Shown piece after piece: positions 23,821 through 61,623 of a stretch of DNA of 64,000 nt. The position numbers and the translations under genes were made by a program. The stretch comes from Escherichia coli (GTDB lineage: Bacteria > Pseudomonadota > Gammaproteobacteria > Enterobacterales > Enterobacteriaceae), in assembly GCA_009729775.1 (NCBI GenBank), contig GCA_009729775.1_4081.1; one strand, 5' to 3'. Position 1 is the stretch's first letter. Every line of letters starts with the position of its first letter. Below the pieces are notes generated by a model, which searched no databases, was not told the DNA's origin, and worked only from the letters and a program-made list of their open reading frames with translations.

Positions 23821-23907
23821 TTTATTTTCCTCATTACCAGGGAGAACCATTTTCTCCCCTCTATGTAAACCATTATACAGTACTAAAAACTAATTGCAAG
23901 TACTTTT

Positions 23908-45953: not shown

Positions 45954-45990
45954 ATTATAGCAAAAAAGGCCGACTAGTGTCAACCCTTTT
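45954..45990 (-). terminator. dual terminator/promoter stem-loop cassette
   Basis: On minus strand: hairpin GGGTTGACactaGTCGGCC plus U-run; TTGACA inside the stem and TATAAT 18 nt downstream. Confidence 0.6.
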
Positions 45991-46131
45991 GTTTAGCTAT
46001 TTGGTCACCAACTCACCAGTACATTGATACTCATATGTGACTTGTGTTTGTACACATCCTAATGGTCGTTGATCTGAACACGTAGTCGTTGAGCCGCCGA
46101 AAATCTCGGCTCCTTCATATCCCCATTTCTG

Positions 46132-46326
46132 TCAACGTTTAACTGCACTATTCAATCCTTGATTTAAATCAATTACTGGAATTTCGGAACGTTGGTCAAA
46201 TGCGTATCCTAATCTGATTACACCATCAGCTTTACTCCCACCAACTGGATATAAATCTTTTTTTACTGTACATCCAGACATAATTGTCACACCTACTAAT
46301 ACTAAAATGGATAACATCTTTTTCAT
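46132..46326 (-). CDS. small lipoprotein (64 aa)
   Basis: Signal peptide with lipobox-like VTIMSGC. Confidence 0.55.
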   Translation of the reverse strand: MKKMLSILVLVGVTIMSGCTVKKDLYPVGGSKADGVIRLGYAFDQRSEIPVIDLNQGLNSAVKR

Positions 46327-46341
46327 TATGATTCCTCATTT

Positions 46342-47481
46342 TTATAAAATGACTTCACCAAAAATACCATTGATATCACGTTCAATGATGTATTCACCTT
46401 CATGTTCAGCTAAGAACTTTTTAATGGCTTCGTTAACTTTAGGACGATGAATGTTGTTGAATGTTTCAGTGCAACCATCTCCCTTTTCATAATAACCTTT
46501 ATTATATAGTTTACCACATAACGCAATTGTATGTATTATTATTTCCAATTCTCTAGCAAGTTTCCCACCCACATTCTTATGAAATAAAATGGAAATTTCA
46601 TTACTCCAAAAATTATCTACTTTATATATTTTTTTATAAGATAAGTTTTGTGGACTTAATCTTGCTTTAATAGTTTTGTTTGTAATACCAGCTTTATCCG
46701 AATTTTTTGCATAATCATTGTGAATATAAAATCTTCCAGGCTTGGAAGTTTTAAATCCTTTTACTGCACACGTGGGACAACCAGAACCAGACAGATGTGA
46801 ATTTGGTGTTTGTTGAAATTCACCATGTTCTTTGCATATTATAATAGAGGTTACTTGGTTGTTAATGTAGTCATATAAAGAATAATCATACTTATTTCCG
46901 TGTATAAGATGTGATTTTTTTATAAATTCACCTAAAGTTTGTTTTAAAGTTTGTTTCGTGCATTCTTGACAACCAATTTTACCAGTAGCTAAGTCAGTAA
47001 TTGTGGGTTTTTTTATATCACCACAATCATTACATACTACTTCAATTTTAGTTCTACTAGGAAGTCTAGAGTTAAACGAAGTTATTCCACTATAAGTAAA
47101 TTTATCATAACCATATTTTTTGTTGATGACACTAATATGATTAATGGTGTAATATGGAATATTAATAATATTGTAAAAAATCTTACCATTAAATCCCTGC
47201 CTAATAAAATTCGTGCAGGTGGCTCCAATAACTAACATACCATCGTTATTCACTACAAGTTTGGTTTTTGATTTAGATATATAATCTTGTGATCTATTGA
47301 TATAGAATCCAAGAACTCTTGGATCATTTATTTCACCCATAATACTAATAGGATCTTGAGCAATGTTGGATTTTTTTACAAAATTTATATCTTCGGCTTT
47401 CATCCACTCAAAAAGCATTCCATGCTCTTCATAAAAATAAACTTTTTCACCATCTTCATTAAAATAGTACTGTTCAAACAT
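46342..47481 (-). CDS. Zn-ribbon protein with GIY-YIG-like segment, possible nuclease / homing-endonuclease-like (379 aa)
   Basis: Duplicated KYxYD...C-x2-C / GCPTC cysteine motifs and GRFYI-x10-AGIT-x6-R resembling GIY-YIG; function tentative. Confidence 0.35.
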   Translation of the reverse strand: MFEQYYFNEDGEKVYFYEEHGMLFEWMKAEDINFVKKSNIAQDPISIMGEINDPRVLGFYINRSQDYISKSKTKLVVNNDGMLVIGATCTNFIRQGFNGKIFYNIINIPYYTINHISVINKKYGYDKFTYSGITSFNSRLPSRTKIEVVCNDCGDIKKPTITDLATGKIGCQECTKQTLKQTLGEFIKKSHLIHGNKYDYSLYDYINNQVTSIIICKEHGEFQQTPNSHLSGSGCPTCAVKGFKTSKPGRFYIHNDYAKNSDKAGITNKTIKARLSPQNLSYKKIYKVDNFWSNEISILFHKNVGGKLARELEIIIHTIALCGKLYNKGYYEKGDGCTETFNNIHRPKVNEAIKKFLAEHEGEYIIERDINGIFGEVIL

Positions 47482-47710
47482 TACTTAAAACTCCTTTCCA
47501 GTACTGAACCCGTCCAGCACCATTAATCTTAGCCTGAATCTTATCTTTTTCGACAAGACCTTCTTTGTAATCGATGGAAGTATTATCGCACTTAATTACA
47601 TCCAAGTCAAGTACTTCTTGGGTAGTTAATGATGTATTATCTGCGATTTGTTGTAGAGTAATTACATCAGTACCGAAGTATTCTGCTAAACGTATAAAAG
47701 ATAGTTTCAT
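47474..47710 (-). CDS. small HTH-like protein (78 aa)
   Basis: ITLQQIADNTSLTTQEVLDL resembles a helix-turn-helix; overlaps start of the 379-aa ORF. Confidence 0.4.
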   Translation of the reverse strand: MKLSFIRLAEYFGTDVITLQQIADNTSLTTQEVLDLDVIKCDNTSIDYKEGLVEKDKIQAKINGAGRVQYWKGVLSNV

Positions 47711-47734
47711 GTATTACCTCTCGTTTCGATAAAA

Positions 47735-47767
47735 TAATTATAGCAAAAAGGGCTGACCGAAGTCAAC
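47735..47767 (-). terminator. dual terminator/promoter stem-loop cassette
   Basis: GGGTTGACttcgGTCAGCCC with UUCG loop, U-run, TTGACT in stem and TATAAT 18 nt downstream (minus strand). Confidence 0.6.
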
Positions 47768-47775
47768 CCTTTATG

Positions 47776-48135
47776 TTATTCTAAGTCACTCATAGTACTA
47801 ATAGTTAATCCCATTTCTTCTGCAATGTTGCATAGCAAACCAACAGCATTACGAAGAATATCAGTGTTGTCCACCGAGAATGATGAGTTTTCATTTACAG
47901 TTGAAGACTCAATGTAGTACTCAAAATAACGAGAAGTTGAACGCACAACTTTAACACCTTCATACTTCTGTAGTTCAGAGTTGACACGTTCGATGAGTAA
48001 ATCTTCCAGTGCTCGATAGTCACCATTCATTCCACGTTTCCACCCATCAGCAGGACGGAAATAAAAAGTTTTTGTACGTTGAATTGTTGAGATTGTTAGT
48101 GGGTTGTATTCCGCGATTTCACTTAAAGATGTCAT
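47776..48135 (-). CDS. hypothetical protein (119 aa)
   Basis: ORF track. Confidence 0.6.
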   Translation of the reverse strand: MTSLSEIAEYNPLTISTIQRTKTFYFRPADGWKRGMNGDYRALEDLLIERVNSELQKYEGVKVVRSTSRYFEYYIESSTVNENSSFSVDNTDILRNAVGLLCNIAEEMGLTISTMSDLE

Positions 48136-48241
48136 GTTGTATTCCTCATTTGGTGATGTACATAATACAGAAATATAGAACAGGTGTCAATGTTTATACC
48201 TCAAATATCCAAATACTTTGGTGTAGCACATACTACATCAA

Positions 48242-48436
48242 CTAATCCTCGCTGAAGACAACAATAAGGAATGACACGAACAATGCCGCATAACAAGGAG
48301 CTATCTTCATGTACCACGGGACTTCATAATACCATGTACCCAATTCATCCCACGAAAAGAGTATACTCAAACCGAAGCCGATTAGCGATAGTACAATAAA
48401 AGAAATCCAGAAACGCTTTGAATATACTAATAACAT
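48242..48436 (-). CDS. small membrane protein (64 aa)
   Basis: Two hydrophobic helices. Confidence 0.5.
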   Translation of the reverse strand: MLLVYSKRFWISFIVLSLIGFGLSILFSWDELGTWYYEVPWYMKIAPCYAALFVSFLIVVFSED

Positions 48437-48474
48437 ATTATGTTCCTTTGTGTGACCGAAGTCAATCCTTTCCT

Positions 48475-48990
48475 TTAATAATTATTCATTTCATCTTTGA
48501 TTTGTTCTTCAATTTCGTCAAACATATCAGTACTAGATTCTATATTACTACTTACGTTCTGCATATCTTTAACGTACTGTGGACATTCAACATCAGTAAA
48601 CTTATACCACGTAGGCTTCATCTGGAGCTTCTCAATCAAACGATCACGAGACATTTTAATCTCTGACTCCGTTGGTACGTAGTCATTACAAAACTCAGCA
48701 GGGAAGCCGCTAATGTCGTTTACTTCAGTGTTTTGAATCTTCATACCACGACGCAGACATTCGTTGACAATATCAATATGACGCTTCTGTAAGTACAGTA
48801 ACTTGTCGTAGAAAAATGTTACATGACCTGAACCTAACAGATAAGTACTGTTAATTTTGAAATCACGTACACGCTTACGTGCTTGAACGTGTTTTTGTAC
48901 AGCACCAAATACACGTGGGAGTTCACGATATTCAGCCATCAGATGTTGGTCAGCAAGTTCTTTAACGTGTACTAAGTTAATGCGTGTCAT
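48475..48990 (-). CDS. denV: endonuclease V (pyrimidine-dimer DNA glycosylase/AP lyase), T4 DenV homolog (171 aa)
   Basis: N-terminus [31 protein letters not shown]...KRVRDFKI...[10 protein letters not shown]...PTWYK is near-identical in pattern to T4 endonuclease V. Confidence 0.9.
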
Positions 48991-49018
48991 GTATTCATCC
49001 TCTCGTTTCGATGAAATG

Positions 49019-49051
49019 ATTATAGCAAAAAGGGCCGACTGAAGTCAACCC
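49019..49051 (-). terminator. dual terminator/promoter stem-loop cassette
   Basis: Hairpin GGGTTGACttcaGTCGGCCC, U-run, TTGACT-N18-TATAAT on minus strand, upstream of denV. Confidence 0.6.
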
Positions 49052-49144
49052 TTTTTTTCTTTCAATCAAACATAGTCTACCAGAATGTACCATGCGATGG
49101 TGATTAGAACAAAGAATCATACACTTCTTCATTGTTTAATCCAT

Positions 49145-49414
49145 TTATTCAACAATCCCCAACTTCACAATCTCATACCCGTCCAGATAGCCGTAGGAAC
49201 ACTCAGGTGTTTCATAAGATGAACCATCATGGATGCCTTGGCATTGACTTTTGGAATTCTCAAGCAATCGTTGCAGTACTGATACGTCATCAAGAACGTA
49301 ATACAAGTTAGCATATAGGTCCGTTACAATACAGTACTCCAACATATCAAATGTATCAATCGAAATTTCAACCTTAGCAAATCGTTTCTTTTCTTTATTA
49401 TACAGTGCGTACAT
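49145..49414 (-). CDS. hypothetical protein (about 89 aa)
   Basis: Start adjusted to MYALYNKEKKRF... abutting the stop of the upstream gene. Confidence 0.5.
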   Translation of the reverse strand: MYALYNKEKKRFAKVEISIDTFDMLEYCIVTDLYANLYYVLDDVSVLQRLLENSKSQCQGIHDGSSYETPECSYGYLDGYEIVKLGIVE

Positions 49415-49415
49415 A

Positions 49416-49787
49416 TTAATCTCCATAATCAAGTTTAACTAACTTACCACCCAGATACCCAAAGTTTTCTGGCTTCGCATCTGAATAGAAGAAGTCAGTA
49501 CTTAACTCTGAATTCAATGCTAAAGCACACAACTCCACCCAAAATAAACCCCTATGTTGTACTGGCTTACAACGTTTCTGTACAGTTACTAGTCCAGTAC
49601 ATGATGACCACAACGTAGGGCAGATACTACTATCACTACGATTGGAGTACTGCATCCACGAACGTTCATTGAGGTTAGCTATCATCCCTGTTAAGAATAG
49701 CTTCCAACTTTTAAAGGTTGGAATCTTGATAGCATATTCCCCAATGAGGATAACAGTTCGGGTTGCACCTTTCAAATCTATATTCAT
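49416..49787 (-). CDS. putative kinase-like protein, truncated form (123 aa)
   Basis: EYAIKIP lysine motif, SDAKPEN catalytic-loop-like and KLDYG DFG-like motif at the very C-terminus. Confidence 0.35.
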   Translation of the reverse strand: MNIDLKGATRTVILIGEYAIKIPTFKSWKLFLTGMIANLNERSWMQYSNRSDSSICPTLWSSCTGLVTVQKRCKPVQHRGLFWVELCALALNSELSTDFFYSDAKPENFGYLGGKLVKLDYGD

Positions 49788-49791
49788 AATG

Positions 49792-49968
49792 TTAGTACGA
49801 ATCAGATTCCCAGTACTCGATTGCTTCTTTCAGCAATTCTTTAGCACGTTGTTTTGCAATGCGAGCGGGGAACTGATATGTGTACATTAACTGACGCTTC
49901 ACTTCATTCAGTGAAAGCTGTTCATGGTACAGTGCATCCATCAGTCGATTACGAGTACGTAGTTTCAT
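49792..49968 (-). CDS. small basic protein (58 aa), not in ORF track
   Basis: Hand translation MKLRTRNRLMDALYHEQLSLNEVKRQLMYTYQFPARIAKQRAKELLKEAIEYWESDSY; AAGGATA RBS. Confidence 0.45.
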   Translation of the reverse strand: MKLRTRNRLMDALYHEQLSLNEVKRQLMYTYQFPARIAKQRAKELLKEAIEYWESDSY

Positions 49969-49979
49969 ATAAGTTATCC

Positions 49980-50534
49980 TTATTTCAAAGAATCATAGTA
50001 AGCAGTGTCAAAGATTGGAGTCATAATAACATAGTCAATACGGTCAATGTAAGTTGAACTCCACATTTCTGGTTTGTCATATAACTGACGCTCGCGTTCA
50101 TTCATACGAGTCAGTACTTCTTCCAATTTACTACGTGAATCCATCAATGTATTACTCGAACCATAAGTGAAGTACTCAGTCCAATGATATTCATATTCAG
50201 TACTGATAGATTGAATAGTACCATCTTTGAAATGAGCTAAGGCATAACCTTTCTCTACAAAGTTATCAGGTGGAAGAACACCATCTGGATTAGTTTTCAA
50301 TGCTTGTGCTAACTTTTCTTTAATTTCAGTTAACGTGCATACTGAACGAATGTTCTTCAGGTTTGATACTTGAAAATCACTGTACTTTCCAAAGAAAAAG
50401 ACACGCCAATCTTTAGGTTCATTATCAGATACGTTAGCATCAGGGTGATAGGCGAGTAAACGAAGAAGGCCAGCTTTGTGACCGTTAATGTAGATTTCAT
50501 GGATGTGGTTAGCAGTTTTCTTAAAAGTAATCAT
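49980..50534 (-). CDS. hypothetical protein (184 aa)
   Basis: ORF track. Confidence 0.65.
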   Translation of the reverse strand: MITFKKTANHIHEIYINGHKAGLLRLLAYHPDANVSDNEPKDWRVFFFGKYSDFQVSNLKNIRSVCTLTEIKEKLAQALKTNPDGVLPPDNFVEKGYALAHFKDGTIQSISTEYEYHWTEYFTYGSSNTLMDSRSKLEEVLTRMNERERQLYDKPEMWSSTYIDRIDYVIMTPIFDTAYYDSLK

Positions 50535-50610
50535 GGTAGTTCCTCGATTGTAGGGATGAGAAGTTCATCCCCTTGATAAGCATTATACAGTACTGAATGT
50601 GTTTGTCAAC

Positions 50611-51006
50611 TCAAAATAAATTCATTTCATGTGCGTATTGTGGTTCAAGATAAGATAAGTTTTTGAAACTGTCTTTCAATTCTGCATCATCTACGTACAC
50701 AGTACCAGGTACATTCCCCATAGTGAAGCCAACCCAAACAGTCATGTTTCCAGTTCCTAAGCGGGGCATTGATAGCGTCCCGTCAGGTGAAACATCAAAC
50801 GCTACACTAAAGTCATTCGTTACAACTTCCGACCCATTTTCCAGAATAATACAACCACGTTCTTTAAGCTTCTGAATGTGGATAGCAGCCTCTACAGCAC
50901 GTTTAAAGTTATAATAAGACTCTTTATCCTCGAACATTGATTGTTTAACCAGACGCTTGTTTAGCTCGGTTACTTTGTGCATTTGACGCATTACTTCAAC
51001 TCCCAC
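50611..51006 (-). CDS. hypothetical protein (131 aa)
   Basis: ORF track. Confidence 0.6.
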   Translation of the reverse strand: MGVEVMRQMHKVTELNKRLVKQSMFEDKESYYNFKRAVEAAIHIQKLKERGCIILENGSEVVTNDFSVAFDVSPDGTLSMPRLGTGNMTVWVGFTMGNVPGTVYVDDAELKDSFKNLSYLEPQYAHEMNLF

Positions 51007-51245
51007 AGTTGTAGAATTTCATAAGAGCCTGGTGGTGCTGGATTGATAATCTCAGGGTATTCAGTACTGTTAGGATTACCACCAGCATTGAACTCAGCAA
51101 GTAATAATTCGAGTTCATTCCTATCATGTACAACAAACACGCAATATCCAGTTCCTTCTTCAAGAACTGTAGTTGACCCCGCACAATCCCATACGGTATC
51201 AATACATAATAATTCTTTAGTGTTTTTATTACGCAACGCAAACAT
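50991..51245 (-). CDS. hypothetical protein (84 aa)
   Basis: Preferred over the overlapping 50996-51298 frame because of protein-like composition. Confidence 0.45.
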   Translation of the reverse strand: MFALRNKNTKELLCIDTVWDCAGSTTVLEEGTGYCVFVVHDRNELELLLAEFNAGGNPNSTEYPEIINPAPPGSYEILQLWELK

Positions 51246-51254
51246 ATATGTCTC

Positions 51255-51599
51255 CTATCGATTCGGCATATTCTTTCGTAGTCGCAAGAGAAATTCAACC
51301 ACTGACCATGTTGTAATGAAGGCTATATAAGTTGCAAGGAATCCAGTAAGAATAAATGCAACCAGCGTACTACCATTTGGGGAATCAGTTTTAATGCCGA
51401 TGACACCATCGGCTACAGTGAAACATGTAGCCATTAATGTGTAACCTACGTACAACACAAAGAAAAACTCATTCTCCATTGAAGGATAGAAACGGTTAAA
51501 CACTTTATAAAATTTAAAGTACAGTAGGATTATACCAACAAAGGCATAGAATGTAAACAGTGTTGTTATAATATATGAGATTAGGTTCAAATTATACAT
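51255..51599 (-). CDS. small membrane protein paralog (about 114 aa)
   Basis: LYFKFYKVFNRFYP motif; C-terminal LRLRKNMPNR. Confidence 0.6.
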   Translation of the reverse strand: MYNLNLISYIITTLFTFYAFVGIILLYFKFYKVFNRFYPSMENEFFFVLYVGYTLMATCFTVADGVIGIKTDSPNGSTLVAFILTGFLATYIAFITTWSVVEFLLRLRKNMPNR

Positions 51600-51600
51600 A

Positions 51601-51948
51601 TCAACGCTCCGGTAGATTATCACGTAATGTTTTAATTCGATGATACATTTTCATACCAATATTACCAAAGATACCATATCCAAGTACTAAAATGTATGCA
51701 ATAAGCATAGTAATAATTACTATAGTGCCAAAACTATAATGTACACTACTGATACCCATTGTAGTTTCAACGATTATTTGAGAAACTGAAAGAATCAAAA
51801 GTACAACTACAATTGGATGATTTGGGTACATTCGGTTGAACAACGTTTTGTACTTAAAGAAGCACAGTACTCCACCGAATAAGAAGTACACAATGTAAAT
51901 GCAAGCAACAGCATAGGCAAACATGTTAGTGTAATAAATCATTACCAA
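51601..51948 (-). CDS. small membrane protein paralog (115 aa)
   Basis: CFFKYKTLFNRMYP; C-terminal LRDNLPER. Confidence 0.6.
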   Translation of the reverse strand: MVMIYYTNMFAYAVACIYIVYFLFGGVLCFFKYKTLFNRMYPNHPIVVVLLILSVSQIIVETTMGISSVHYSFGTIVIITMLIAYILVLGYGIFGNIGMKMYHRIKTLRDNLPER

Positions 51949-51951
51949 TCC

Positions 51952-52290
51952 TTACTTTTCAGGGATATTAGAACGCCATATATCAATGCGATGAACTAGT
52001 CCAAAGAACAACCATACTGGAACGGCAGCTATCATAACAAAAAATGAAAACCCAGTCAACACCGATACCAGATTTAATTCATCAGTACTATACCCACATA
52101 TCAGTACTTCTAATATTCCCCACGTACATGCACAAAACATCAAGAATGAAATTGGGGCATCATAGTAGATACGTTCATATAAAGTAGTGTATCGGAAGAA
52201 TGCAATAATGTAGCAAAACATATAATACACCCAAACCAAAGATACTACATAAAATGATACTTTGTTTATTAATTCAAAATATTGTTCCAT
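51952..52290 (-). CDS. small membrane protein paralog (112 aa)
   Basis: AFFRYTTLYERIYY; C-terminal WRSNIPEK. Confidence 0.6.
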   Translation of the reverse strand: MEQYFELINKVSFYVVSLVWVYYMFCYIIAFFRYTTLYERIYYDAPISFLMFCACTWGILEVLICGYSTDELNLVSVLTGFSFFVMIAAVPVWLFFGLVHRIDIWRSNIPEK

Positions 52291-52292
52291 TT

Positions 52293-52574
52293 TTACCCCA
52301 ATATATATTCAGAGAGTAATGTATTAGCTTCATCTTTGTTCTTAAGGTAATACATGTAATATAGATTCGGTTCACCATCTTTAGAACTCAAATCGAAGTA
52401 CTTTAAACTATGTACTTTCATAGTAAAAACAAATAATGACTTAAAACCAATCTCACCGTACTTAATAAACAGTTCATCCAAATGAATGTAACTTTTTGAT
52501 TGTGATAGTTCTTTCACATCGGCTTCAATTTCATCTAAACGAATCTTGCCAATTAAGTTTTTAAATGAACGCAT
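52293..52574 (-). CDS. hypothetical protein (93 aa)
   Basis: ORF track. Confidence 0.55.
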   Translation of the reverse strand: MRSFKNLIGKIRLDEIEADVKELSQSKSYIHLDELFIKYGEIGFKSLFVFTMKVHSLKYFDLSSKDGEPNLYYMYYLKNKDEANTLLSEYILG

Positions 52575-52578
52575 TATT

Positions 52579-52992
52579 TTATCCTTTTACACAATTTGTC
52601 ATAATGTAAACACGTTTAATAAAAGAACTTTCATACACGTACTTCAACTTGCCATTCTCACGTAAGCGGTGGAAAACATCACCTTTGTTAGTACTCCATG
52701 TGGAACCAGTACTAGCATCGACATTAGCCATCGACCCACTGGTTACATTAATACCGTACTTAAAACTAAAAGTATCCCCGTCTTCAACTAATGTCACAGG
52801 TGCACTACGTTCATGTTCAAATACAAGTTTAGAACCAATCATCTCATATGATTTCAATTTACACTTCATTACACCCATTTCATCTTGAGTGGGGAGATTT
52901 CTTTCAAATATATCAGACACTTCGTTTGCAGAAGCAAATGAACTCATTGTCATTAATACAATACTAGTTACAATTAAAATAATATTTTTCAT
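52579..52992 (-). CDS. secreted protein with signal peptide (137 aa), paralog of 53761-54180
   Basis: Signal peptide MKNIILIVTSIVLMTMSSFASA; shared GD-FSF-Y ... VF-R-RE-G-LKYVYES block. Confidence 0.65.
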   Translation of the reverse strand: MKNIILIVTSIVLMTMSSFASANEVSDIFERNLPTQDEMGVMKCKLKSYEMIGSKLVFEHERSAPVTLVEDGDTFSFKYGINVTSGSMANVDASTGSTWSTNKGDVFHRLRENGKLKYVYESSFIKRVYIMTNCVKG

Positions 52993-53049
52993 AGTGTATT
53001 TGTCTCTTTGTTTATGGTTTATTAAGAATACACCAGAACATCAGTTCTG

Positions 53050-53691
53050 TCAATAAAAAACTGGATCTTCTTCAGTAATTGGTATTTCTCTACGCACATC
53101 ACACGAAAGAGGATCAGTAATGAATACATTCCCATCTTTATCCATCATCACATTACTTGAATGAATGTCTGGTACAAAACGCCCGTGAAATTCTTTCATG
53201 ATGTTAGCAGCGACCGTTGCAATAGCAATCTCTTCAGAATTTCCACGCATATCATTCACTGAAGTTGCGTACTGACCAGCATGTGCATACGAATACAAAT
53301 CACCAATTTTAGTACTAACAAAGTCATCATAATTATTTTTTTGTTTAATTATAGGATAGTACTTGTCCATCTCATACCATCCAAAGTTTCCTTGTTCGTT
53401 TGCACTGTAGATCACTGGAAGAAACTTGGTTCCTGCGTTTTCAATGCAGTACTTTGCATAAGCACGAAAACCATCCCAGCGTGAAGTGGTTACTTTAAAT
53501 GCACGCCCAGGATAGTTTTTATGTTCAACTACTACAGAGTACATCCCCATTCCAAGCAAAGTAAGTTCAGCAGCTTTAACTTGTGGAAAGATTACGCGTT
53601 CAGCATAAGGAATATCAAACTCCATCGCACAACGAGTTTTTGATGGACGCAAAATGTCAATTAAAGTTTTGAATATTTCTTGCTTAGTCAT
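53050..53691 (-). CDS. putative kinase-like protein (about 213 aa)
   Basis: Start adjusted to MTKQEIFK...; FVPDIHSSNVMMDKDGNVFITDP resembles the catalytic loop and metal-binding D of small-molecule/atypical kinases. Confidence 0.35.
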   Translation of the reverse strand: MTKQEIFKTLIDILRPSKTRCAMEFDIPYAERVIFPQVKAAELTLLGMGMYSVVVEHKNYPGRAFKVTTSRWDGFRAYAKYCIENAGTKFLPVIYSANEQGNFGWYEMDKYYPIIKQKNNYDDFVSTKIGDLYSYAHAGQYATSVNDMRGNSEEIAIATVAANIMKEFHGRFVPDIHSSNVMMDKDGNVFITDPLSCDVRREIPITEEDPVFY

Positions 53692-53719
53692 TACTTTATC
53701 CTCTGTAGTTAATATCAAC

Positions 53720-53753
53720 ATCATAACAAAAAAGGCTGACCGAAGTCAACCCT
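53720..53753 (-). terminator. dual terminator/promoter stem-loop cassette
   Basis: GGTTGACttcgGTCAGCC hairpin, U-run, TTGACT-N18-TATGAT on minus strand. Confidence 0.55.
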
Positions 53754-53760
53754 TTTATTA

Positions 53761-54180
53761 TCATTTACAGTTTTCTATAACTATTGCACGTTTTAGTATT
53801 TTACTTTCATAAACATACTTAAGATGACCTTCTTCACGAATACGATTGAACACATATCCTAGTTTATCTTTTAGTACTGAAGCGGTATCAATGTCAAGAT
53901 TAACTTCAACCCCTCCTGTTAATTTAACTTTATATGTAAAGCTAAAAGCATCACCAGATTCAACCAATGGGACTACTTGTTCATACGTATTCAACATAAC
54001 TCGTTCATCATCAACTAAATTATATATTACTATATCACAAGTTTTTACCCCAATTTCCTCTAAGGTAGGAGCATTGTCTACTATAACATCTTTTACTGTA
54101 TTTGCAACCTGTTTAGCATCTGCTGCATATACATTAAAACTAAAAAGTACTAAAATAATACTTAAAAAAATCTTTTTCAT
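53761..54180 (-). CDS. secreted protein with signal peptide (139 aa), paralog of 52579-52992
   Basis: Signal peptide MKKIFLSIILVLFSFNVYA. Confidence 0.65.
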   Translation of the reverse strand: MKKIFLSIILVLFSFNVYAADAKQVANTVKDVIVDNAPTLEEIGVKTCDIVIYNLVDDERVMLNTYEQVVPLVESGDAFSFTYKVKLTGGVEVNLDIDTASVLKDKLGYVFNRIREEGHLKYVYESKILKRAIVIENCK

Positions 54181-54189
54181 TATATATCC

Positions 54190-54519
54190 TTATTTTATTT
54201 TACACGTCATATCGGGTTGTGCTGGTTTATTATTTTTAAACGGATTAGGTTTTTTATCTTTCTTTTTATCTTTTAAAGGTTTTTTGTCTTCTTTTTTATC
54301 TTTATCTTTGTCTTTTTTATTGTTATCAGGTTCGGTTGGAGTATTACATTGTGCTGGTGATGGGTTCGTCGGGTTACAGCTATTGTCGGGTGGGAGTTTT
54401 ACTTCTTTACAATTGTAAAATAGTAAACTTTTATTTGTGGTTAAATTATGAAAACGATAGTTACGTTCATTATTATAATAAATTTTTTTAGTACTTTCAA
54501 TGTCATTACACATTGCCAC
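54190..54519 (-). CDS. Lys/Asp-rich low-complexity protein (109 aa)
   Basis: KKDKDKDKKEDKKPLKDKKKDKKP run. Confidence 0.45.
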   Translation of the reverse strand: MAMCNDIESTKKIYYNNERNYRFHNLTTNKSLLFYNCKEVKLPPDNSCNPTNPSPAQCNTPTEPDNNKKDKDKDKKEDKKPLKDKKKDKKPNPFKNNKPAQPDMTCKIK

Positions 54520-54523
54520 GGAA

Positions 54524-54775
54524 TCACCGAAACTCTTTTTCTATTCCGAGTACATCCGTCTTACGCTCAGATAGTATACCTGAAGTATATGAATCTTTGT
54601 TGTCAAACGCATTAAATCCAATAGTTCTGTCGGTGTCGTGTATTATTCCTTTTGTGTATGAGGTAGTATAGAACTCCCCATTTCTGAAATCCTGCCTTGC
54701 TACGGAGCAATGATAATCTGCACCATAAGCAGTACTGGAAAATAATACAATTCCAAATATAATATATTTTTTCAT
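54524..54775 (-). CDS. secreted small protein with signal peptide (83 aa)
   Basis: MKKYIIFGIVLFSSTAYGA. Confidence 0.6.
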   Translation of the reverse strand: MKKYIIFGIVLFSSTAYGADYHCSVARQDFRNGEFYTTSYTKGIIHDTDRTIGFNAFDNKDSYTSGILSERKTDVLGIEKEFR

Positions 54776-54802
54776 TGTAATCCTCTTCTTAATTCCTCTT
54801 TT

Positions 54803-54834
54803 GTATTTACAAAAAAAGGCTGACCGAAGTCAAC
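54803..54834 (-). terminator. dual terminator/promoter stem-loop cassette
   Basis: GGTTGACttcgGTCAGCC hairpin plus U-run; TTGACT in stem. Confidence 0.55.
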
Positions 54835-54845
54835 CTTTAGTTTTA

Positions 54846-56390
54846 TCATTTACCGTATTTGCTCATGATGTCCTTTTCCCAATGAGTTACGTTACCGTTA
54901 TCGTAATCTTTAAAGGAATTATCAAGAGTAGTTAATGCATATTCGTATGCTTCAGGTGATTCAATGTCAACATCATCAGCACCATTTACTAAATCAGTCC
55001 ATGCTTTTTGTAGTTTACGAGCATTTTTACCAACATTACTTTTAATCCAACTAATGTTTTTGTTGATACTCTTATTATCAGCACCAGCTTTTTTACCAAT
55101 ATCGGATATCCACATCATTAGCTTTTGGAGTTCATGAATGGAGTTGTCGTTCATTTCACGATCTTTAGCCAATTCTGCTTCCATGCCATCAGTATCAGTA
55201 CCATCTTTAGAACCTACATCAATTCCATGTTTAGCTAATAGTTTACCAAGTTCAAAGAATGCTGCCTCAGCAGGGAAGTCATAACCTTTGTCTTTGTAGT
55301 TGTTCCATGCACTATCAAACTCATCTACAAATCGGTTGGCATAATCTGGATTGTCCACGAGAGCTTTGTACACTGCCATTGCATGTTCAAATCCTTCTTT
55401 GTCAGAACCAAACTCTCCCATTTCTGGACGATGAATGTAACCATCCATATCAACAGTATCAGGTAAATCATCATGAGATGTTTCAGCATCTTTCTGGTCA
55501 ACTGCACCTTCTTCATCTGCACGAACTAAGTAACCATCTTTTGATACTTTCTCACCATGTTCAGCTTCATACTTTTTCATAGTATTGAATGCAGAATTCA
55601 TAACAGTGATGAATCGAGACTTCTCACCTGGTGAGTAAGAATCTAATGCTGCTTTAATAGCATCATGTACTAATTGAATCTTATCATCTTTGCCTTCAAG
55701 ACGATTTTCTAACTTAGCAAGAACATTCTTAACTTGCTGGGCGTTAGCACGGTCTTCTTTACCTATACGGTTAACAGTATGGAGGATGCTTTCAAGACTT
55801 GCTTCTTCAGCAGTCGCTTCTTCTTGACCTTCAAGTGCACGCATGATAGTACTGAATACTTCAGTTGGTTCAGTACTGGTATTTCCACTCATTGCATCAA
55901 GTACAGCTTGTGCTTTGACTTTTAATTCTTCTTTAGGTACAGATTGCAATTCTTTCACAATACCTTGGATAAGTTGTGGTTTATTAGCAAAAATCTTACC
56001 TAACTTATCAGACAATTCTTTGACAGGGTTAACCGCCTTTGGTGCTTCTTGTTTTGGTTCTTCTTTCGCAGGAGCAGACTTTTCTTTTTCTTCACGTTCC
56101 ATATCAGCTAGGCGTTGTTTTTGTGTAGCATTAAGAAGTCCCAATGAATTAACATAACGTAGCTTTTCTAGCTCAGTCATGTTCTCAGTACTCTTAACTT
56201 CACCTGCTTCTGCGTTTGCTTTACCAGCTAGACCAGTTCCTTGGTTACGTGATCCACGTGAACCTTGACCTGCTTGATAACTATTTGGTCGGCGGTTGCG
56301 TTCACTCCATTTATCAGAGTGACCAGCCATGTTACCACCATTTTTATCAGTAAAATTACTTGGCATTTGATTTCTCTCCATAGATTTCAT
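54846..56390 (-). CDS. large charged protein (514 aa), function unknown
   Basis: ORF track; N-terminal LEKLRYVNSLGLLNATQKQRL block shared with 56636-57019. Confidence 0.7.
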   Translation of the reverse strand: MKSMERNQMPSNFTDKNGGNMAGHSDKWSERNRRPNSYQAGQGSRGSRNQGTGLAGKANAEAGEVKSTENMTELEKLRYVNSLGLLNATQKQRLADMEREEKEKSAPAKEEPKQEAPKAVNPVKELSDKLGKIFANKPQLIQGIVKELQSVPKEELKVKAQAVLDAMSGNTSTEPTEVFSTIMRALEGQEEATAEEASLESILHTVNRIGKEDRANAQQVKNVLAKLENRLEGKDDKIQLVHDAIKAALDSYSPGEKSRFITVMNSAFNTMKKYEAEHGEKVSKDGYLVRADEEGAVDQKDAETSHDDLPDTVDMDGYIHRPEMGEFGSDKEGFEHAMAVYKALVDNPDYANRFVDEFDSAWNNYKDKGYDFPAEAAFFELGKLLAKHGIDVGSKDGTDTDGMEAELAKDREMNDNSIHELQKLMMWISDIGKKAGADNKSINKNISWIKSNVGKNARKLQKAWTDLVNGADDVDIESPEAYEYALTTLDNSFKDYDNGNVTHWEKDIMSKYGK

Positions 56391-56413
56391 TTTTTCTCTA
56401 TGTCTATATTTAT

Positions 56414-56444
56414 AGTATAAAGAAAAGGCTGACCGAAGTCAACC
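56414..56444 (-). terminator. dual terminator/promoter stem-loop cassette
   Basis: GGTTGACttcgGTCAGCC hairpin; TTGACT-N17-TATACT on minus strand. Confidence 0.55.
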
Positions 56445-56452
56445 TTATTTTG

Positions 56453-56566
56453 TTACTTAGATTGTTCTTGTGCAGGTGGATTTACTTTTTGATCCACTAC
56501 ATAGAATACACCACCAACCAGAACTGCGGCGATGAGTGCAGCAACTACAAATTTCAAACCTTGCAT
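56453..56566 (-). CDS. small membrane peptide (37 aa), not in ORF track
   Basis: Hand translation MQGLKFVVAALIAAVLVGGVFYVVDQKVNPPAQEQSK; GAGGT RBS; sits between two cassettes. Confidence 0.5.
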   Translation of the reverse strand: MQGLKFVVAALIAAVLVGGVFYVVDQKVNPPAQEQSK

Positions 56567-56595
56567 ATATGATACCTCAGTTATATTGAGAAGTT

Positions 56596-56629
56596 ATGAT
56601 ACAACAAAGGGCTGACCTTAGTCAACCCC
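56596..56629 (-). terminator. dual terminator/promoter stem-loop cassette (variant loop)
   Basis: GGGGTTGACtaagGTCAGCCC hairpin; T-run on plus side, TTGACT-N18-TATCAT on minus. Confidence 0.5.
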
Positions 56630-56635
56630 TTTTTA

Positions 56636-57019
56636 TTACTTCTTGAACTTATGTTTTTCACTTTCGATTGCATTCACGATTTCATCATGAATTTTACGAA
56701 GATTGTGAGTTTTCTTGAGAGAATCATGCAATGCACGGAATGCAGAGTGTACAGTTGCTTTAAAGTGCTCTTTAGGAGTTACTTTAAGTTTCTCGATAAT
56801 ATCACGTACATAGATTGGGTGATCCTCAAACACACGATTAAGCTCATGACCTAGTGATTCTAGGCTAAATGCTTTTTCACGGGATGGACGATCATGTGCA
56901 AGACTTTGGTCTGGTTTTAGAAGACCTAGTGAATCTAGATACTTGTGCTTATGTGCATTGTCTAGACCAGAAATATCAACATCATGTGATGGATCTTTCT
57001 TATTCCATTTATCAACCAT
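56636..57019 (-). CDS. hypothetical protein (127 aa)
   Basis: HKHKYLDSLGLLKPDQ block similar to N-terminus of the 514-aa protein. Confidence 0.6.
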   Translation of the reverse strand: MVDKWNKKDPSHDVDISGLDNAHKHKYLDSLGLLKPDQSLAHDRPSREKAFSLESLGHELNRVFEDHPIYVRDIIEKLKVTPKEHFKATVHSAFRALHDSLKKTHNLRKIHDEIVNAIESEKHKFKK

Positions 57020-57134
57020 TTTTATAACTCCTATAAGAGATAAATTTTACTATAATATTTATAGTTCCGTTGTCATTTATATCGAATGACATAAAACATT
57101 ATATCATAATAAGAATGGTTGTCCCAAAGTTAAA

Positions 57135-57578
57135 TTAGTACTGATCAAGTTCAGATGTAAAAATGAATGCATCCATGTCTTCCAACGTAAGTTTTAAGTC
57201 TGGTACATACTTAAGAATAACGCACTCTGGCTTCTTAATAGCAGCTTGATAAGCAGCAATGGCAAGGGATTCCAACTGCTGTGCTGTATAATTTTTACGT
57301 TCTGCATTAAAAACTTTGTTTTTGATATCACCACCTGGGAGTTTTTCAAACTCACGCATAACTGCGGTAAGAACATCGTCAGCAGTGTTACTATATACCC
57401 ATTGGGGTAATTGCATTACATTATAAATCACACCACTATCATCCATCAAAGAGATCCATTTGTACCCATCACTAGCACTGAACAAACGCCCTTTTAGTAC
57501 TGTGTTATTAGTTAAATTTACAAATGCAAAAATATCTTGTTCGTTAAGTTCAATACTATTAACATTTACCCAACTCAT
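57135..57578 (-). CDS. hypothetical protein (about 147 aa)
   Basis: Start adjusted to MSWVNVNSIEL... Confidence 0.55.
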   Translation of the reverse strand: MSWVNVNSIELNEQDIFAFVNLTNNTVLKGRLFSASDGYKWISLMDDSGVIYNVMQLPQWVYSNTADDVLTAVMREFEKLPGGDIKNKVFNAERKNYTAQQLESLAIAAYQAAIKKPECVILKYVPDLKLTLEDMDAFIFTSELDQY

Positions 57579-57591
57579 TACGATTCCCCAT

Positions 57592-58188
57592 TCATAAATC
57601 ACGAACAATATTCATTAAACACAATTTAGGTTTTATAGCATTCAACACCCATATGCATTCTTTGTAAGTAGCTATTATATCATCTAAATGCTCAGTTACA
57701 ATGCTTTCTTGAAAATATTCTTCATCATTGAGCTTTGCTAATTTAGTAACATCACACGTAGGCACTATAGGTCTGGATTGTACACCCATTCCATTATTGA
57801 TATTAGTGAAATGTACAAAATGGTACTTCACAACACCTTTATCTAGATTTATTATACATGACAAATTTTCCAACTCAGTTAGCTTTTTATTACAAGTAAC
57901 ATTAATGAAACCAGCATTATAGGCTCTATAATCATCTACTGATATCTCAAGATCATTACGCTCAAATATAAGTGAGATGAGTTGGTCGAGTGGTTTGACA
58001 TTCATATATTTTAATGAATTTACGTATGATACTTCAATCTTAGATGAAATTATCTTTTTACTAAGTGCAGTTAAATCTTTGTTAGATTTAACTGTTAAAA
58101 CAATAGGTTTAAACCTAGAACTTTTGTTCTTTTTTGATACTTTAAAACGACCTTTACGATTCATAATTTCCTCAATTAATAATTTCAC
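57592..58188 (-). CDS. family-B-like protein (198 aa), EEYFQESIV motif
   Basis: ORF track; family motif. Confidence 0.6.
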   Translation of the reverse strand: MKLLIEEIMNRKGRFKVSKKNKSSRFKPIVLTVKSNKDLTALSKKIISSKIEVSYVNSLKYMNVKPLDQLISLIFERNDLEISVDDYRAYNAGFINVTCNKKLTELENLSCIINLDKGVVKYHFVHFTNINNGMGVQSRPIVPTCDVTKLAKLNDEEYFQESIVTEHLDDIIATYKECIWVLNAIKPKLCLMNIVRDL

Positions 58189-58393
58189 ATTTAACGTGTG
58201 GTTTATATAGCATAATTAACCCATTTTTAAGTACAATGATTGTTGCTCTGTTAGTAATCGAAACGTTTTTAATTATACTTTTTTTATATGTTTCAACATA
58301 TTTCTCTTCATAATTTATACATTTAACATATTCTTTTTGTTTAGCACTTACAACAGTACTGAATAATATCAGTACAAGTACTATATATTTCAT
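58172..58393 (-). CDS. secreted small protein with signal peptide (73 aa)
   Basis: MKYIVLVLILFSTVVSA. Confidence 0.55.
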   Translation of the reverse strand: MKYIVLVLILFSTVVSAKQKEYVKCINYEEKYVETYKKSIIKNVSITNRATIIVLKNGLIMLYKPHVKCEIIN

Positions 58394-58445
58394 TACTATA
58401 CCTTATAAACAAAAAGGAATTCATTTAAGAATTCCTATTTTACAA

Positions 58446-58739
58446 TCATTTATCTAACATACCATTGTGCAAACGTTCATATACTTCAGTTCGACGCAAA
58501 TTAACAATATCTTCTGCGTATTTTAATGTAAATGCCCATGCTTTTGGATGTACGTTAAGCTTCATACGAATTCGATTTTTCATCAACTCTCCACTTAAAC
58601 GAATAAATTCGTGTACACCACGACTACCGTATTCAGTAATTAAATCATTAATGTACATATCACGAAGAGTTTCATCTGCACATTCTTTAACCATTTCTAC
58701 GTCAGCGACGATGCTTTCATTAACTGAAGTACTGATCAT
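58446..58739 (-). CDS. hypothetical protein (97 aa)
   Basis: ORF track. Confidence 0.55.
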   Translation of the reverse strand: MISTSVNESIVADVEMVKECADETLRDMYINDLITEYGSRGVHEFIRLSGELMKNRIRMKLNVHPKAWAFTLKYAEDIVNLRRTEVYERLHNGMLDK

Positions 58740-58751
58740 TTTTAATTTACC

Positions 58752-59018
58752 TTATTTAAATTCGACTGTAATTTTATCACCTTCAACTACGAACTTACAG
58801 TTGTAGCGACGTGCCATATCCATGTACATATGCTCAGAGTACCAAGGAACATCAATAATCGGATGCTCTGCATATTGTAGAACTTCACGGTCGCCCACTG
58901 TAGTAATGATGAAAGGAATGTTCATCTCTCGTAAAAACAGTTCAGCACCAGGAGAACGATTAATAAATTCAGTATCATTACGTAAAGTAAATCCATTATA
59001 TTGTAATTTAAGCTTCAT
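58752..59018 (-). CDS. hypothetical protein (88 aa)
   Basis: ORF track. Confidence 0.55.
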   Translation of the reverse strand: MKLKLQYNGFTLRNDTEFINRSPGAELFLREMNIPFIITTVGDREVLQYAEHPIIDVPWYSEHMYMDMARRYNCKFVVEGDKITVEFK

Positions 59019-59032
59019 ATGTTATCCTCTAT

Positions 59033-59377
59033 TCAATACCATTCTTTAAAACCATTAAGTTCGGCTACGTGAGTGATTATAACACATATAACATTCAGGT
59101 CAAGTATAATTTGATCATAATTTAATTTTATACGATCATCATTATATGCTCTAAAAACTACATCGTAATCAAAGAAATTTGCGTTTTCATCATTCATTGA
59201 AACGATTCGGTATCTACGTCTTCCATCTGTATTGAATATAGTTAAACACTGTTGAAACTTTCTCATTAACTGTTTAGATAGGATATTATAATATTCAATA
59301 TCTTTTTGTGAATTACGTGGGTCATCAGGAAGATAGAATGAAACAAATTTCTTTAATTCTATTTGAGTTTTATCCAT
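59033..59377 (-). CDS. hypothetical protein (114 aa)
   Basis: ORF track. Confidence 0.55.
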   Translation of the reverse strand: MDKTQIELKKFVSFYLPDDPRNSQKDIEYYNILSKQLMRKFQQCLTIFNTDGRRRYRIVSMNDENANFFDYDVVFRAYNDDRIKLNYDQIILDLNVICVIITHVAELNGFKEWY

Positions 59378-59810
59378 ATATTACCTCATTTGTTTCTCTT
59401 TTACTTTGTCGGAACTCATCCTTTGCTTCCTTAACTGACATGATACGAACTAATTTAGCACTACCGCAATAGTACTGAACCTGATTACGACCAATGTCTA
59501 CATGGTGGTCTGGAACTTCATATACAGATATAGCAAACCCAGCACGATGCAATTTACCCAAGTCCATAGTGAAGAATCTGAACAAATCTTTCAAACTTTG
59601 ACAGCCAAATACCCATCCACTTTTGATTGAATAGATCCCATCCTCAGTTGGTTCAGGTTGGAATTGAGAAGGTGTAGTCATAAGCAAACGGTCAAATCCA
59701 TTTTTAGTACTGTATCTGGTTGAATACCGTGCAAACGGACCTACAGTTCGTGCAGGATCTAAGTTAGGTTCAATGTAACTAAATTTAAGTTCAAAACGAT
59801 ATACATACAT
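59370..59810 (-). CDS. hypothetical protein (146 aa)
   Basis: ORF track. Confidence 0.6.
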   Translation of the reverse strand: MYVYRFELKFSYIEPNLDPARTVGPFARYSTRYSTKNGFDRLLMTTPSQFQPEPTEDGIYSIKSGWVFGCQSLKDLFRFFTMDLGKLHRAGFAISVYEVPDHHVDIGRNQVQYYCGSAKLVRIMSVKEAKDEFRQSKRETNEVIYG

Positions 59811-59838
59811 AATTAAAATCCTCTAATTTATTAAGAGA

Positions 59839-59870
59839 ATTATAACAAAAAAGGCTGACCGAAGTCAACC
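59839..59870 (-). terminator. dual terminator/promoter stem-loop cassette
   Basis: GGTTGACttcgGTCAGCC hairpin; TTGACT-N18-TATAAT on minus; stop codon of upstream gene lies in the stem. Confidence 0.55.
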
Positions 59871-61566: not shown

Positions 61567-61623
61567 ATTTTTTACCTCAAGTTTAAGTGTTAAGTTTCAG
61601 ACTACAGGAACCATTATACAGTA

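Follow-up and report, generated by a model that had tools for sequence, protein, structure and literature searches.

Promoter(early) stem-loop elements (PeSLs) are defined as strong σ70-like promoters combined with stem-loops that act as effective terminators, and both activities have been demonstrated for phages RB49/phi1 (PMC2839356). Five subclasses are distinguished; the stem-loop may be placed upstream of the promoter boxes, cover them, sit between them or follow downstream of the -10 box. PeSLs also recombine with one another, whereby the ORFan enclosed by them is cut out as a minicircle (PMC2839356). The concept has been extended to PST/T4 and nt-1/KVP40, with an nt-1 consensus of A3-4 G3-loop-C3 T3-4 and TTGYVH-N17-TAWWAT (PMC4122927). 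Here we analyzed a stretch of 64,000 nucleotides from an Escherichia coli assembly (GCA_009729775.1, contig GCA_009729775.1_4081.1; hereafter the window), the 45-60 kb part of which is DNA of an Asteriusvirus jumbo coliphage, 96-98% identical to phages of ~350 kb (SHEFM2K, 121Q, G17, phAPEC6, SP27). Stem-loops that recur between genes of this window would, with a probability of roughly 0.8, represent composite cassettes of the PeSL type, in which an intrinsic terminator for the upstream gene is overlaid on a host σ70 early promoter for the downstream gene.

Twelve cassettes were found, all of them on the minus strand and thus co-oriented with the genes; two more copies (54833 and 48465) are partial. 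Read along this strand, a cassette consists of an A-run, GG(G)TTGAC-UUCG-GUCAGCC(C), a U-run and (TGn)TATAAT placed 17-18 bp after TTGAC; it measures ~35-45 bp, or ~90 bp if a conserved leader is included. In late-region copies the order is stop codon, A-run, GG(G)TTGAC, TTCG, GTCAGCC(C), 5-7 T, TGn, TATAAT-like hexamer, a leader of ~25 nt, GAGG and ATG. The 13 copies fall into two stretches, 9.7-19.1 kb and 45.9-59.9 kb, amid hypothetical genes of 40-250 amino acids (aa). The genes of the cassette regions lie on the minus strand and encode mostly small hypothetical proteins, besides a gp0.7-like protein kinase, endonuclease V and homing endonucleases; those served by cassettes are small hypothetical proteins and early-type functions (the kinase and endonuclease V). 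An earlier note on this DNA had counted eight dual cassettes in the late region. Seven of them are full composites, with -35 boxes starting at 45983, 47766, 49048, 53749, 56442, 56625 and 59868 (by which the cassettes are named below) and -10 boxes ending at 45954, 47737, 49019, 53720, 56414, 56596 and 59839; the eighth (listed at 54803, -35 box at 54833) lacks a usable -10 box. The note also had the gene for a 37-aa peptide bracketed by one cassette alone, a point to be corrected, as this gene sits between two cassettes, 56625 and 56442. The late-region features, all on the minus strand, are as follows:

45954 to 45990, minus strand: full cassette (45983), AAAAGGGTTGAC-ACUA-GUCGGCCUUUUUU, TGc, TATAAT, -13.7 kcal/mol; predicted to drive a 257-aa gene (minus strand, ATG 45925)

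45991 to 47736, minus strand: ~1.7-kb segment with a 78-aa open reading frame (ORF), a 379-aa homing-endonuclease-like ORF and a 64-aa ORF, bounded by cassettes 47766 and 45983

47737 to 47772, minus strand: full cassette (47766), UUCG loop, spacer 18, TGcTATAAT, -18.3 kcal/mol; ARNold terminator in G17

48437 to 48468, minus strand: degenerate copy (48465), TTGACTTCGGTCA retained, no outer stem or U-run left, with CATAAT 17 bp further on

49019 to 49056, minus strand: full cassette (49048), loop UUCA, two G.U pairs, TGcTATAAT, -17.3 kcal/mol; predicted to drive the endonuclease V gene (minus strand, ATG 48990)

53720 to 53756, minus strand: full cassette (53749), TGtTATGAT; predicted to drive the gene for the gp0.7-like protein kinase (minus strand, ATG 53691)

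54815 to 54838, minus strand: hairpin (54833) with a 7-U run and no usable -10 box (GTAAAT/TAAATA), -13.3 kcal/mol, after a 514-aa virion protein gene

56414 to 56446, minus strand: full cassette (56442) between the 37-aa and 514-aa genes, spacer 17, TATACT, -12.4 kcal/mol

56453 to 56566, minus strand: 37-aa peptide gene, MQGLKFVVAALIAAVLVGGVFYVVDQKVNPPAQEQSK, a single hydrophobic helix; annotated in 121Q (gene 200) and G17

56596 to 56631, minus strand: full cassette (56625), loop UAAG, TATCAT, -18.3 kcal/mol

59839 to 59873, minus strand: full cassette (59868), TGtTATAAT

The likeness to cassettes of T4-type phages suggested in the earlier note was upheld: a stem-loop over the -35 box is one of the five subclasses known from RB49/phi1 (PMC2839356), where the elements likewise flank ORFans, and intergenic regions of nt-1 share the layout. 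Reading nt-1 directly at 50.5-56.5 kb, we found the intergenic sequences AAAAGGGTTGCTTCGGCAGCCCTTTTTTGTTATTCT and GAAAAGGGTTGCACTATGCAGCCCTTTTTAGTATTAT...CATCGAAACGAGA, which at fuller length read TTTAAAAGGGTTGCTTCGGCAGCCCTTTTTTGTTATTCT... and GAAAAGGGTTGCACTATGCAGCCCTTTTTAGTATTATATCTACATCGAAACGAGA..., with the -35 box inside the 5' arm; the nt-1 leader CATCGAAACGAGA is the leader found at window cassettes 47766 and 49048. Shared with the nt-1/KVP40 PeSLs (PMC4122927) are A3-4 G3, a stem with the -35 box, a loop, C3 T3-4 and a -10 box ~17 bp past the -35 box, followed by the leader ACATCGAAACGAGA and then a Shine-Dalgarno (SD) sequence and ATG, as well as the location between small ORFs of hyperplastic regions. 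All anatomical hallmarks of PeSLs were found, namely promoter, stem-loop, edges formed by a stop codon/AT tract and by SD/ATG, many copies in plastic regions, and the layout as such. Judged by their sequence, the window elements are, in every respect that can be tested, nt-1/KVP40-style PeSLs. They differ from those of nt-1 in that the -35 box is the full consensus TTGAC(T/A) instead of TTGYVH, that the loop is almost always UUCG, and that the phage is a ~350-kb Asteriusvirus (Rak2-like group) and not a member of the Straboviridae. The phage is not of the T4 type, which concerns the taxonomic range of PeSLs and not the anatomy of the element. In RB49/phi1, by contrast, stems are polyG/polyC and mostly located between the -35 box and the -10 box or over the latter; experiments on these phages demonstrated both activities, promoter and terminator, as well as minicircles. 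In our literature search, PeSLs were confined to papers dealing with T4-like phages, apart from being mentioned briefly in one cyanophage paper and one haloarchaeal-virus paper, and we found no description of such elements for the Asteriusvirus group. Our searches of the literature on 121Q, PBECO4, RaK2, GAP32 and phAPEC6 turned up only separate lists of predicted promoters and terminators (for CBB and PA5oct), and an overlap of the two is noted in none.

Two further systems invite comparison. Hairpins with a C(UUCG)G loop reportedly occur in intercistronic regions of T4 and are said to have been described as RNA stability or termination elements (Tuerk et al. 1988). The window cassettes resemble them in the extra-stable CUUCGG tetraloop that recurs between phage genes and differ in carrying the -35 box of the next promoter, a role that is not known to have been described for the T4 hairpins. 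Lambdoid morons, i.e., genes that each have a promoter and a terminator to themselves, resemble the 37-aa gene (56453-56566), which together with its flanking cassettes 56625 and 56442 forms, by sequence, a self-contained promoter-gene-terminator unit. The signals that flank a moron, however, do not form conserved repeats, nor are they considered to mediate mobility (PMC2839356), whereas here one repeat would supply both signals for neighbouring units.

The elements are far more frequent than expected by chance, and they are confined to one strand. Searching the window for TTGACTTCGGTCA with up to two mismatches yielded 13 matches, all on the minus strand, versus 1.2 expected, and 13 matches were reached in 0 of 100 shuffles. 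A composite search, requiring a hairpin with a stem of 6 bp or more, a -35 box (at least 5/6) within its 5' arm and a -10 box located 16-19 nt further on, gave 14 sites, all on the minus strand, compared with 0.17 per strand in first-order Markov simulations; the plus strand gave 0. Eleven of the 14 composites are the element described here, a twelfth copy of which (45983) has the loop ACUA; three (18218, 20746, 21040) belong to a second family, CAGTACTATTGACA...TGATAGTACTG-gCATAAT. Motif and composite searches also confirmed the claim that variants in the early region have the same hairpin (9768, 11691, 15050 and 19104). A motif match at 21389 (ATGAGTTCGGTCA) was discarded as a chance match, as it has neither an A-run nor a -35 box. 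The cassettes resemble one another more than their flanks do (mean identity 0.72, maximum 0.94, versus 0.57), and they occupy orthologous positions in seven close relatives. A scan of the window for tRNA genes and a comparison with Rfam at gathering thresholds gave no match, indicating that neither the hairpins nor a conserved box downstream of some of them (see below) belong to known RNA families.

Several lines of evidence point to function of the hairpin at the RNA level. The sense RNAs fold with -12.4 to -19.5 kcal/mol (z of -4 to -7 versus shuffles) into stems of 9-13 bp, which begin 3-7 nt past stop codons and are preceded by the A-run; in the eight late-region hairpins, the stem is followed by 5-7 U with at most one interruption. 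These eight thus combine a G+C-rich stem, a short loop, a U-run and a co-oriented stop codon as expected of intrinsic terminators, a combination that is weak in the four early variants. At cassette 47766 the stem begins 3 nt past the upstream stop codon, and the downstream 78-aa gene starts with an ATG at 47710; at cassette 59868, the TGA within the -35 sequence TTGAC even doubles as stop codon of the upstream 63-aa ORF (59865-60056), and the terminator annotated at the G17 counterpart overlaps the end of the coding sequence. The degenerate copy 48465, which precedes a 64-aa membrane ORF (48242-48436), lacks the makings of an intrinsic terminator (4-bp stem, -3.2 kcal/mol, z = 0.3). In the GenBank record of G17, ARNold terminators had been entered at eight sites in the homologous 13.8 kb, seven of which are cassette hairpins. 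Compared with the antisense fold, the sense fold gains ~6 kcal/mol in stability in 12/12 copies of the window and, among 92 distinct copies from relatives, in 91. This is owed to UUCG loops and to G.U pairs, which turn into A.C mismatches when the other strand is folded; a bidirectional terminator was rejected on account of the much weaker antisense fold. Across relatives, loops are UUCG or of the GNRA type (GAAA, GAGA, GCAA, GUAA, GCGA), a wobble position of the stem is G.U in some phages and A-U in others (the 121Q orthologue of copy 54833 has GTCAACC, with an A-U pair replacing G.U), and the outer stem changes on both sides (GGG/CCC, GGGA/UCCC, GUGG/CCAU, AUGG/CCAU). The 3' arm lies in the promoter spacer, which is not read by σ70, yet it is kept complementary to the -35 box, suggesting selection for the hairpin itself.

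The promoter side of the cassettes is similarly well defined. Among the 13 hairpin copies, 12 have TTGACW, a 17-18 bp spacer and a -10 box matching at least 4/6 positions, and the two hexamers of cassette copies match 10-12 of the 12 consensus positions. An extended -10 box (TGn) is present in 9/12 copies, and an A-run of 3-8 nt adjoins the stem in all copies, where an UP element would lie. A GAGG-type SD sequence and an ATG follow 25-35 nt past the -10 box. TTGAC is invariant, whereas stem positions outside it vary. For the related phage CBB, RpoD-like promoters with UP-like elements have been reported to be concentrated in the early region (PMC5259590). Promoter-like hexamer pairs as such are not enriched in this AT-rich DNA (96 versus 92.5 expected at 44.5-64 kb); what supports a promoter is therefore the constant spacing relative to hairpin, leader and start codon, together with the statistics of the composite. 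The dual terminator/promoter function put forward in the earlier note is hence in line with each sequence-level feature inspected: stable sense-specific hairpins, their position relative to stop codons, the U-run, -35 box, spacer and -10 box, and the SD sequence with ATG. That the window cassettes terminate and initiate transcription, and how efficiently, is inferred; what we observed is sequence anatomy, statistics, strand specificity, positional conservation, a layout identical to that of published PeSLs and one cassette-to-cassette indel.

This indel distinguishes the window from SP27, where a single hybrid cassette replaces the 1.7 kb between cassettes 47766 and 45983. The two BLAST alignments with SP27 overlap by 50 bp, which correspond to the cassette; the left flank is that of the 47766 copy and the leader that of the 45983 copy. 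Judged from these end points, the event is the signature of PeSLs, namely recombination between direct repeats rather than random intergenic insertion. The same two-PeSL versus one-PeSL topology separates close relatives in the case of RB49/phi1 (PMC2839356). In total, comparison of the window at 41-64 kb with its relatives revealed seven indel events, six of them intergenic, three of which touch a full cassette; the seventh difference falls within the 514-aa gene. Two further indels abut cassettes. At the slot 45995-47481 beside cassette 45983, homology with SHEFM2K, 121Q and phAPEC6 starts exactly at the A-run, and an 87-bp HNH-like remnant (49066-49144, minus strand) is inserted directly 5' of the A-run of cassette 49048 relative to G17 and 121Q. 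A block comprising the degenerate copy 48465 and the 64-aa membrane ORF (48195-48587) is absent from SHEFM2K and phAPEC6. The tandem paralogue arrays at 41.4-45.1 kb and 49.1-52.6 kb consist of abutting genes without cassettes, and the cassettes therefore do not explain the arrays. The proposal that the cassettes are the vehicle of gene shuffling thus stands in part: the clean two-versus-one cassette indel and the two abutting indels speak for it, the three indels without a full cassette and the cassette-free arrays against it. The flank comparison for recombination breakpoints, which the note had called for, ended likewise mixed, with the SP27 end points inside the cassette and no full cassette edge at half of the intergenic indels.

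Concerning the contents of these sites, the slot 45995-47481 holds the 379-aa ORF in the window, a different homing endonuclease gene in SHEFM2K and ELP22, two other ORFs in 121Q, a GIY-YIG-type 'exonuclease ABC C subunit' gene in phAPEC6 and nothing in SP27. By this comparison, the slot is a hot spot of homing-endonuclease turnover beside a cassette. The 87-bp insert, present in the window and in SHEFM2K, is preceded by a stop codon and followed by cassette 49048; its product, MKKCMILCSNHHRMVHSGRLCLIE, has the look of a C-terminal remnant of an HNH endonuclease.

A number of observations weigh against the interpretation as dual and recombining cassettes. A spacer of 18 bp is one above the optimal length. 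Not every copy is dual, as 54833 has no -10 box and 48465 no real hairpin, and the early variants, with merely 3-4 U past the stem, may terminate poorly. For the Asteriusvirus group, our literature search found no 5'/3' RNA end maps, reporter data or in vitro data. Genes were gained or lost at 49790 and at 52597-53011 without a cassette. Finally, three of six intergenic indels touching a full cassette compare with ~9 of 58 junctions that carry one, corresponding to a rough binomial P of ~0.05-0.2, depending on how edges are counted; the association between cassettes and breakpoints is not statistically compelling, and a role in recombination is shown by example, with too few events for enrichment.

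Some of these points would fit alternative explanations. The elements might be early promoters only, with the inverted repeat at the -35 box serving as a DNA-level operator for a phage or host regulator, or as a cruciform, rather than as an RNA terminator. The palindrome TGAC-N4-GTCA indeed overlaps the -35 box, a common position for repressors, other early promoter families of the window carry the palindrome AGTACT beside the -35 box and no U-run, hinting at a DNA-level theme, and the U-runs of the early variants are very short. We nonetheless regard an operator as very improbable, considering that C(UUCG)G and GNRA are RNA-specific extra-stable tetraloops, and that a DNA palindrome or protein site would be strand-symmetric, while the sense fold, with its G.U wobbles, is the better one in 103 of 104 copies. 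Flanking A- and U-runs and a position 3-7 nt after stop codons are hallmarks of terminators, and the identical 18-mer design recurs in phages that share no regulators (Brochothrix A9, Vibrio VH7D, Aeromonas 65; see below). The fixed placement of the -10 box in 12/13 copies, together with TGn, leader, SD sequence and ATG at fixed distances, is in turn difficult to reconcile with the opposite notion that the hairpins are terminators or 3'-end stabilizing/processing structures only, with TTGAC and the TATAAT-like hexamer being incidental and downstream genes expressed by read-through. One might invoke in its favour that GenBank annotators marked terminators only, that promoter-like hexamer pairs occur at chance level in the region and that copy 54833 exists without a -10 box. 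Against it stand the 14 composites where ~0.17 per strand are expected, and the invariance of TTGAC amid variable stem positions. Moreover, PeSLs of identical layout are active promoters in RB49/phi1, so strong that clones acquired -35 or -10 mutations (PMC2839356). We therefore attach scant credence to this notion and retain the composite cassette as our interpretation.

Harder to dismiss, albeit not what we favour, is the possibility that the cassettes are dual in function and play no special role in rearrangement, such that the indel edges simply reflect tolerated intergenic insertion and the insertion of homing endonuclease genes. The events at cassette-free junctions (49790 and 52597-53011), the half of the intergenic indels that touch no full cassette, the different homing endonuclease genes held by the slot beside cassette 45983 in different phages, and the paralogue arrays devoid of cassettes would all be in keeping with this idea. 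It does not readily account for the SP27 event, both end points of which lie within the repeated cassette with 50 bp of shared homology, and PeSL-to-PeSL excision with formation of minicircles has been demonstrated in RB49/phi1 (PMC2839356).

On the preferred interpretation, one piece of DNA would be used twice. A polymerase arriving from upstream would transcribe first the A-run, then GG(G)UUGAC as the 5' arm, the tetraloop C(UUCG)G, GUCAGCC(C) as the 3' arm and finally the U-run; the hairpin would then fold, and the transcript would be released within the very stretch of DNA that forms the promoter spacer. In the DNA duplex, the A-run would act as an UP-like element and TTGACW as the -35 box, followed by a 17-18 bp spacer that holds the 3' arm and the T-run, and by TGnTATAAT. 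Initiation is expected ~7 nt past the -10 box, leading into the short conserved leader CATCGAAACGAGAGGA with SD sequence and ATG. Each small early gene would thereby become an insulated, portable unit, and the next promoter would not be occluded by read-through. Being direct repeats 45-90 bp long and up to 94% identical, the cassettes would, at least occasionally, also recombine homologously with one another, by which intervening genes are lost or gained.

In Asteriusvirus records, the sites are listed as terminators or not at all. Their recognition would provide a map of early transcription units for a group of ~350-kb phages with >80% unknown genes. The design itself is already known from T4-type phages, and the present findings carry the PeSL concept beyond these. 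The plasticity of jumbo phages would gain a concrete and testable recombination substrate, and synthetic biology a compact (~40 bp) natural insulator part, in which a terminator is joined to a predicted strong promoter.

The distribution of the core sequence is considerably wider than the Asteriusvirus group. The exact 18-mer GGTTGACTTCGGTCAGCC was found in 39 IMG/VR stretches, nearly all with a U-run and -10 box after the 18-mer. Among its carriers are 121Q, with 7 copies, RaK2, GAP32, further contigs of 345-378 kb and, outside the Rak2-like group, Aeromonas phage 65, Vibrio phage VH7D (KVP40-like; the -10 box follows), a ~155-kb contig related to Pectobacterium phage POP17, and an unclassified metagenomic phage with four copies (locus L027/L035), for which no relative was detected in the phage collection. 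In Brochothrix phage A9 (Herelleviridae), which has a Gram-positive host, the 18-mer lies on the coding strand between the DNA polymerase gene and gp142. With a U-run and a -10 box after it, the 18-mer is thus present in at least five lineages: Asteriusvirus with RaK2 and GAP32, the Straboviridae (Aeromonas phage 65 and VH7D), the POP17-related contig, the metagenomic phage and Brochothrix A9. Several of these have the same leader after it. The cassette that precedes the kinase gene is conserved in position in one Rak2-like relative, contig L050 (63%-identical kinase orthologue), and absent in another, L049. One could imagine that the cassette marks the boundary of plug-and-play units across phage families, either as a convergent optimum of a σ70/σA promoter-terminator or as cassettes that travel with ORFans and seed recombination in jumbo phages; on the basis of sequence comparisons, we consider this doubtful.

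The 63-aa ORFan upstream of cassette 59868 (59865-60056, minus strand) is a small gene exchanged widely, with homologues in phage families unrelated to one another: RB49-like T4-type phages, T7-like phages (beside DNA ligase) and rV5-like phages, some records of the latter bearing the label Campylobacter phage. The RB49 homologue has no adjoining PeSL, the genes there being tightly packed, and hence offers no evidence for co-transfer of gene and cassette. As to hairpin 54833, this copy is probably a terminator only; past it, at 54803-54815 (minus strand), TTTTTTTGTAAATAC is similar to ATAAATA, a motif of late promoters that has been predicted in CBB and GAP32 (PMC5259590), and could be a late rather than an early promoter.

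The four early variants have one extra base pair (A-U), a loop of the UCCG/UUCG type, a spacer of 17 bp, TGcTATTAT and 3-4 U past the stem:

9740 to 9775, minus strand: early variant, GGGAUUGAC-UCCG-GUCAGUCCC, UUU, TGcTATTAT, spacer 17, -19.5 kcal/mol

11663 to 11698, minus strand: early variant, loop UCCA

15022 to 15057, minus strand: early variant

19076 to 19111, minus strand: early variant, GUGGUUGAC-UUCG-GUCAGCCAU, outer stem altered on both sides versus GGG/CCC

The variant at 9740-9775 is the first promoter in a ~230-nt module of tandem promoters. Modules of this kind are repeated between genes, each headed by an early cassette (9480-9800, 11400-11723, 14760-15082 and 18815-19136 on the minus strand, delineated by alignment), and comprise, in this order, the hairpin cassette, a conserved box, an AGTACT-type promoter, a leader hairpin and the gene, i.e., two promoters in tandem. 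The invariant box, CTA(A/G)CCCAYAGGGTGC, is invariably situated ~25-40 nt past the start of strong σ70-like promoters, including all four early hairpin cassettes:

9718, 11636, 15000, 17359, 19049 and 25349, minus strand: CTA(A/G)CCCAYAGGGTGC box

23523, plus strand: further copy of this box

A short variable hairpin with apparently compensatory changes precedes the box, and AnnAnTCCGTCTAT, often with a subsequent GC-rich hairpin, comes after it. The resulting units of ~100 nt are ORF-free, and some copies form the 5' untranslated region of a gene. The box was also seen in seven other loci (L007, L046, L056, L086, L098, L099, L112), reaches multiple copies in no phages other than Rak2-like jumbo phages, and gave no match in Rfam. 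RNAalifold applied to the conserved box downstream of the early variants returned an invariant 4-bp stem alone and no covariation, for which reason we make no structural claim. The box could represent a small-RNA family or a promoter-proximal signal comparable to nut/put.

The window also harbours promoters of other designs:

18190 to 18226, minus strand: second family with hairpin and -35 box, CAGTACTATTGACAnnnnnTGATAGTACTG, then gCATAAT; 12-bp stem, no U-run

20718 to 20754 and 21012 to 21048, minus strand: further members of this second family

50582 to 50609, minus strand: consensus promoter without -35 hairpin, TTGACA-16-TATAAT, AGTACTGTATAATG type, hairpin in the leader

61613 to 61640, minus strand: second copy of this promoter

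In the second family, a 12-bp inverted repeat, CAGTACTATTGACA...TGATAGTACTG, encloses the -35 box and may be the site of a regulator rather than a terminator. The promoters at 50609 and 61640, which have no hairpin over the -35 box, show that the promoter design can do without one at this place. They belong to a ~90-bp promoter family with at least 20 copies at 9-28 kb, from which it follows that the phage uses several cassette designs, akin to the several PeSL subclasses of RB49/phi1 (PMC2839356). This family is built from AAAAAGTACTTGCAA...AGTACTGTATAATGG, a leader hairpin GGGGAGAA...TTCTCCC, SD sequence and ATG, with two palindromic AGTACT motifs flanking the -35 box; examples are found at 23800-23930, 19489-19576 and 16351-16413 (minus strand), as well as at 50520-50630 and 61560-61670. 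The early region at 7-23 kb is highly mosaic, with the best relative covering 74% of it at ~90% identity in 14 pieces, and the matching stretch of vB_Ec-M-J carries the annotation 'Direct Terminal Repeats'.

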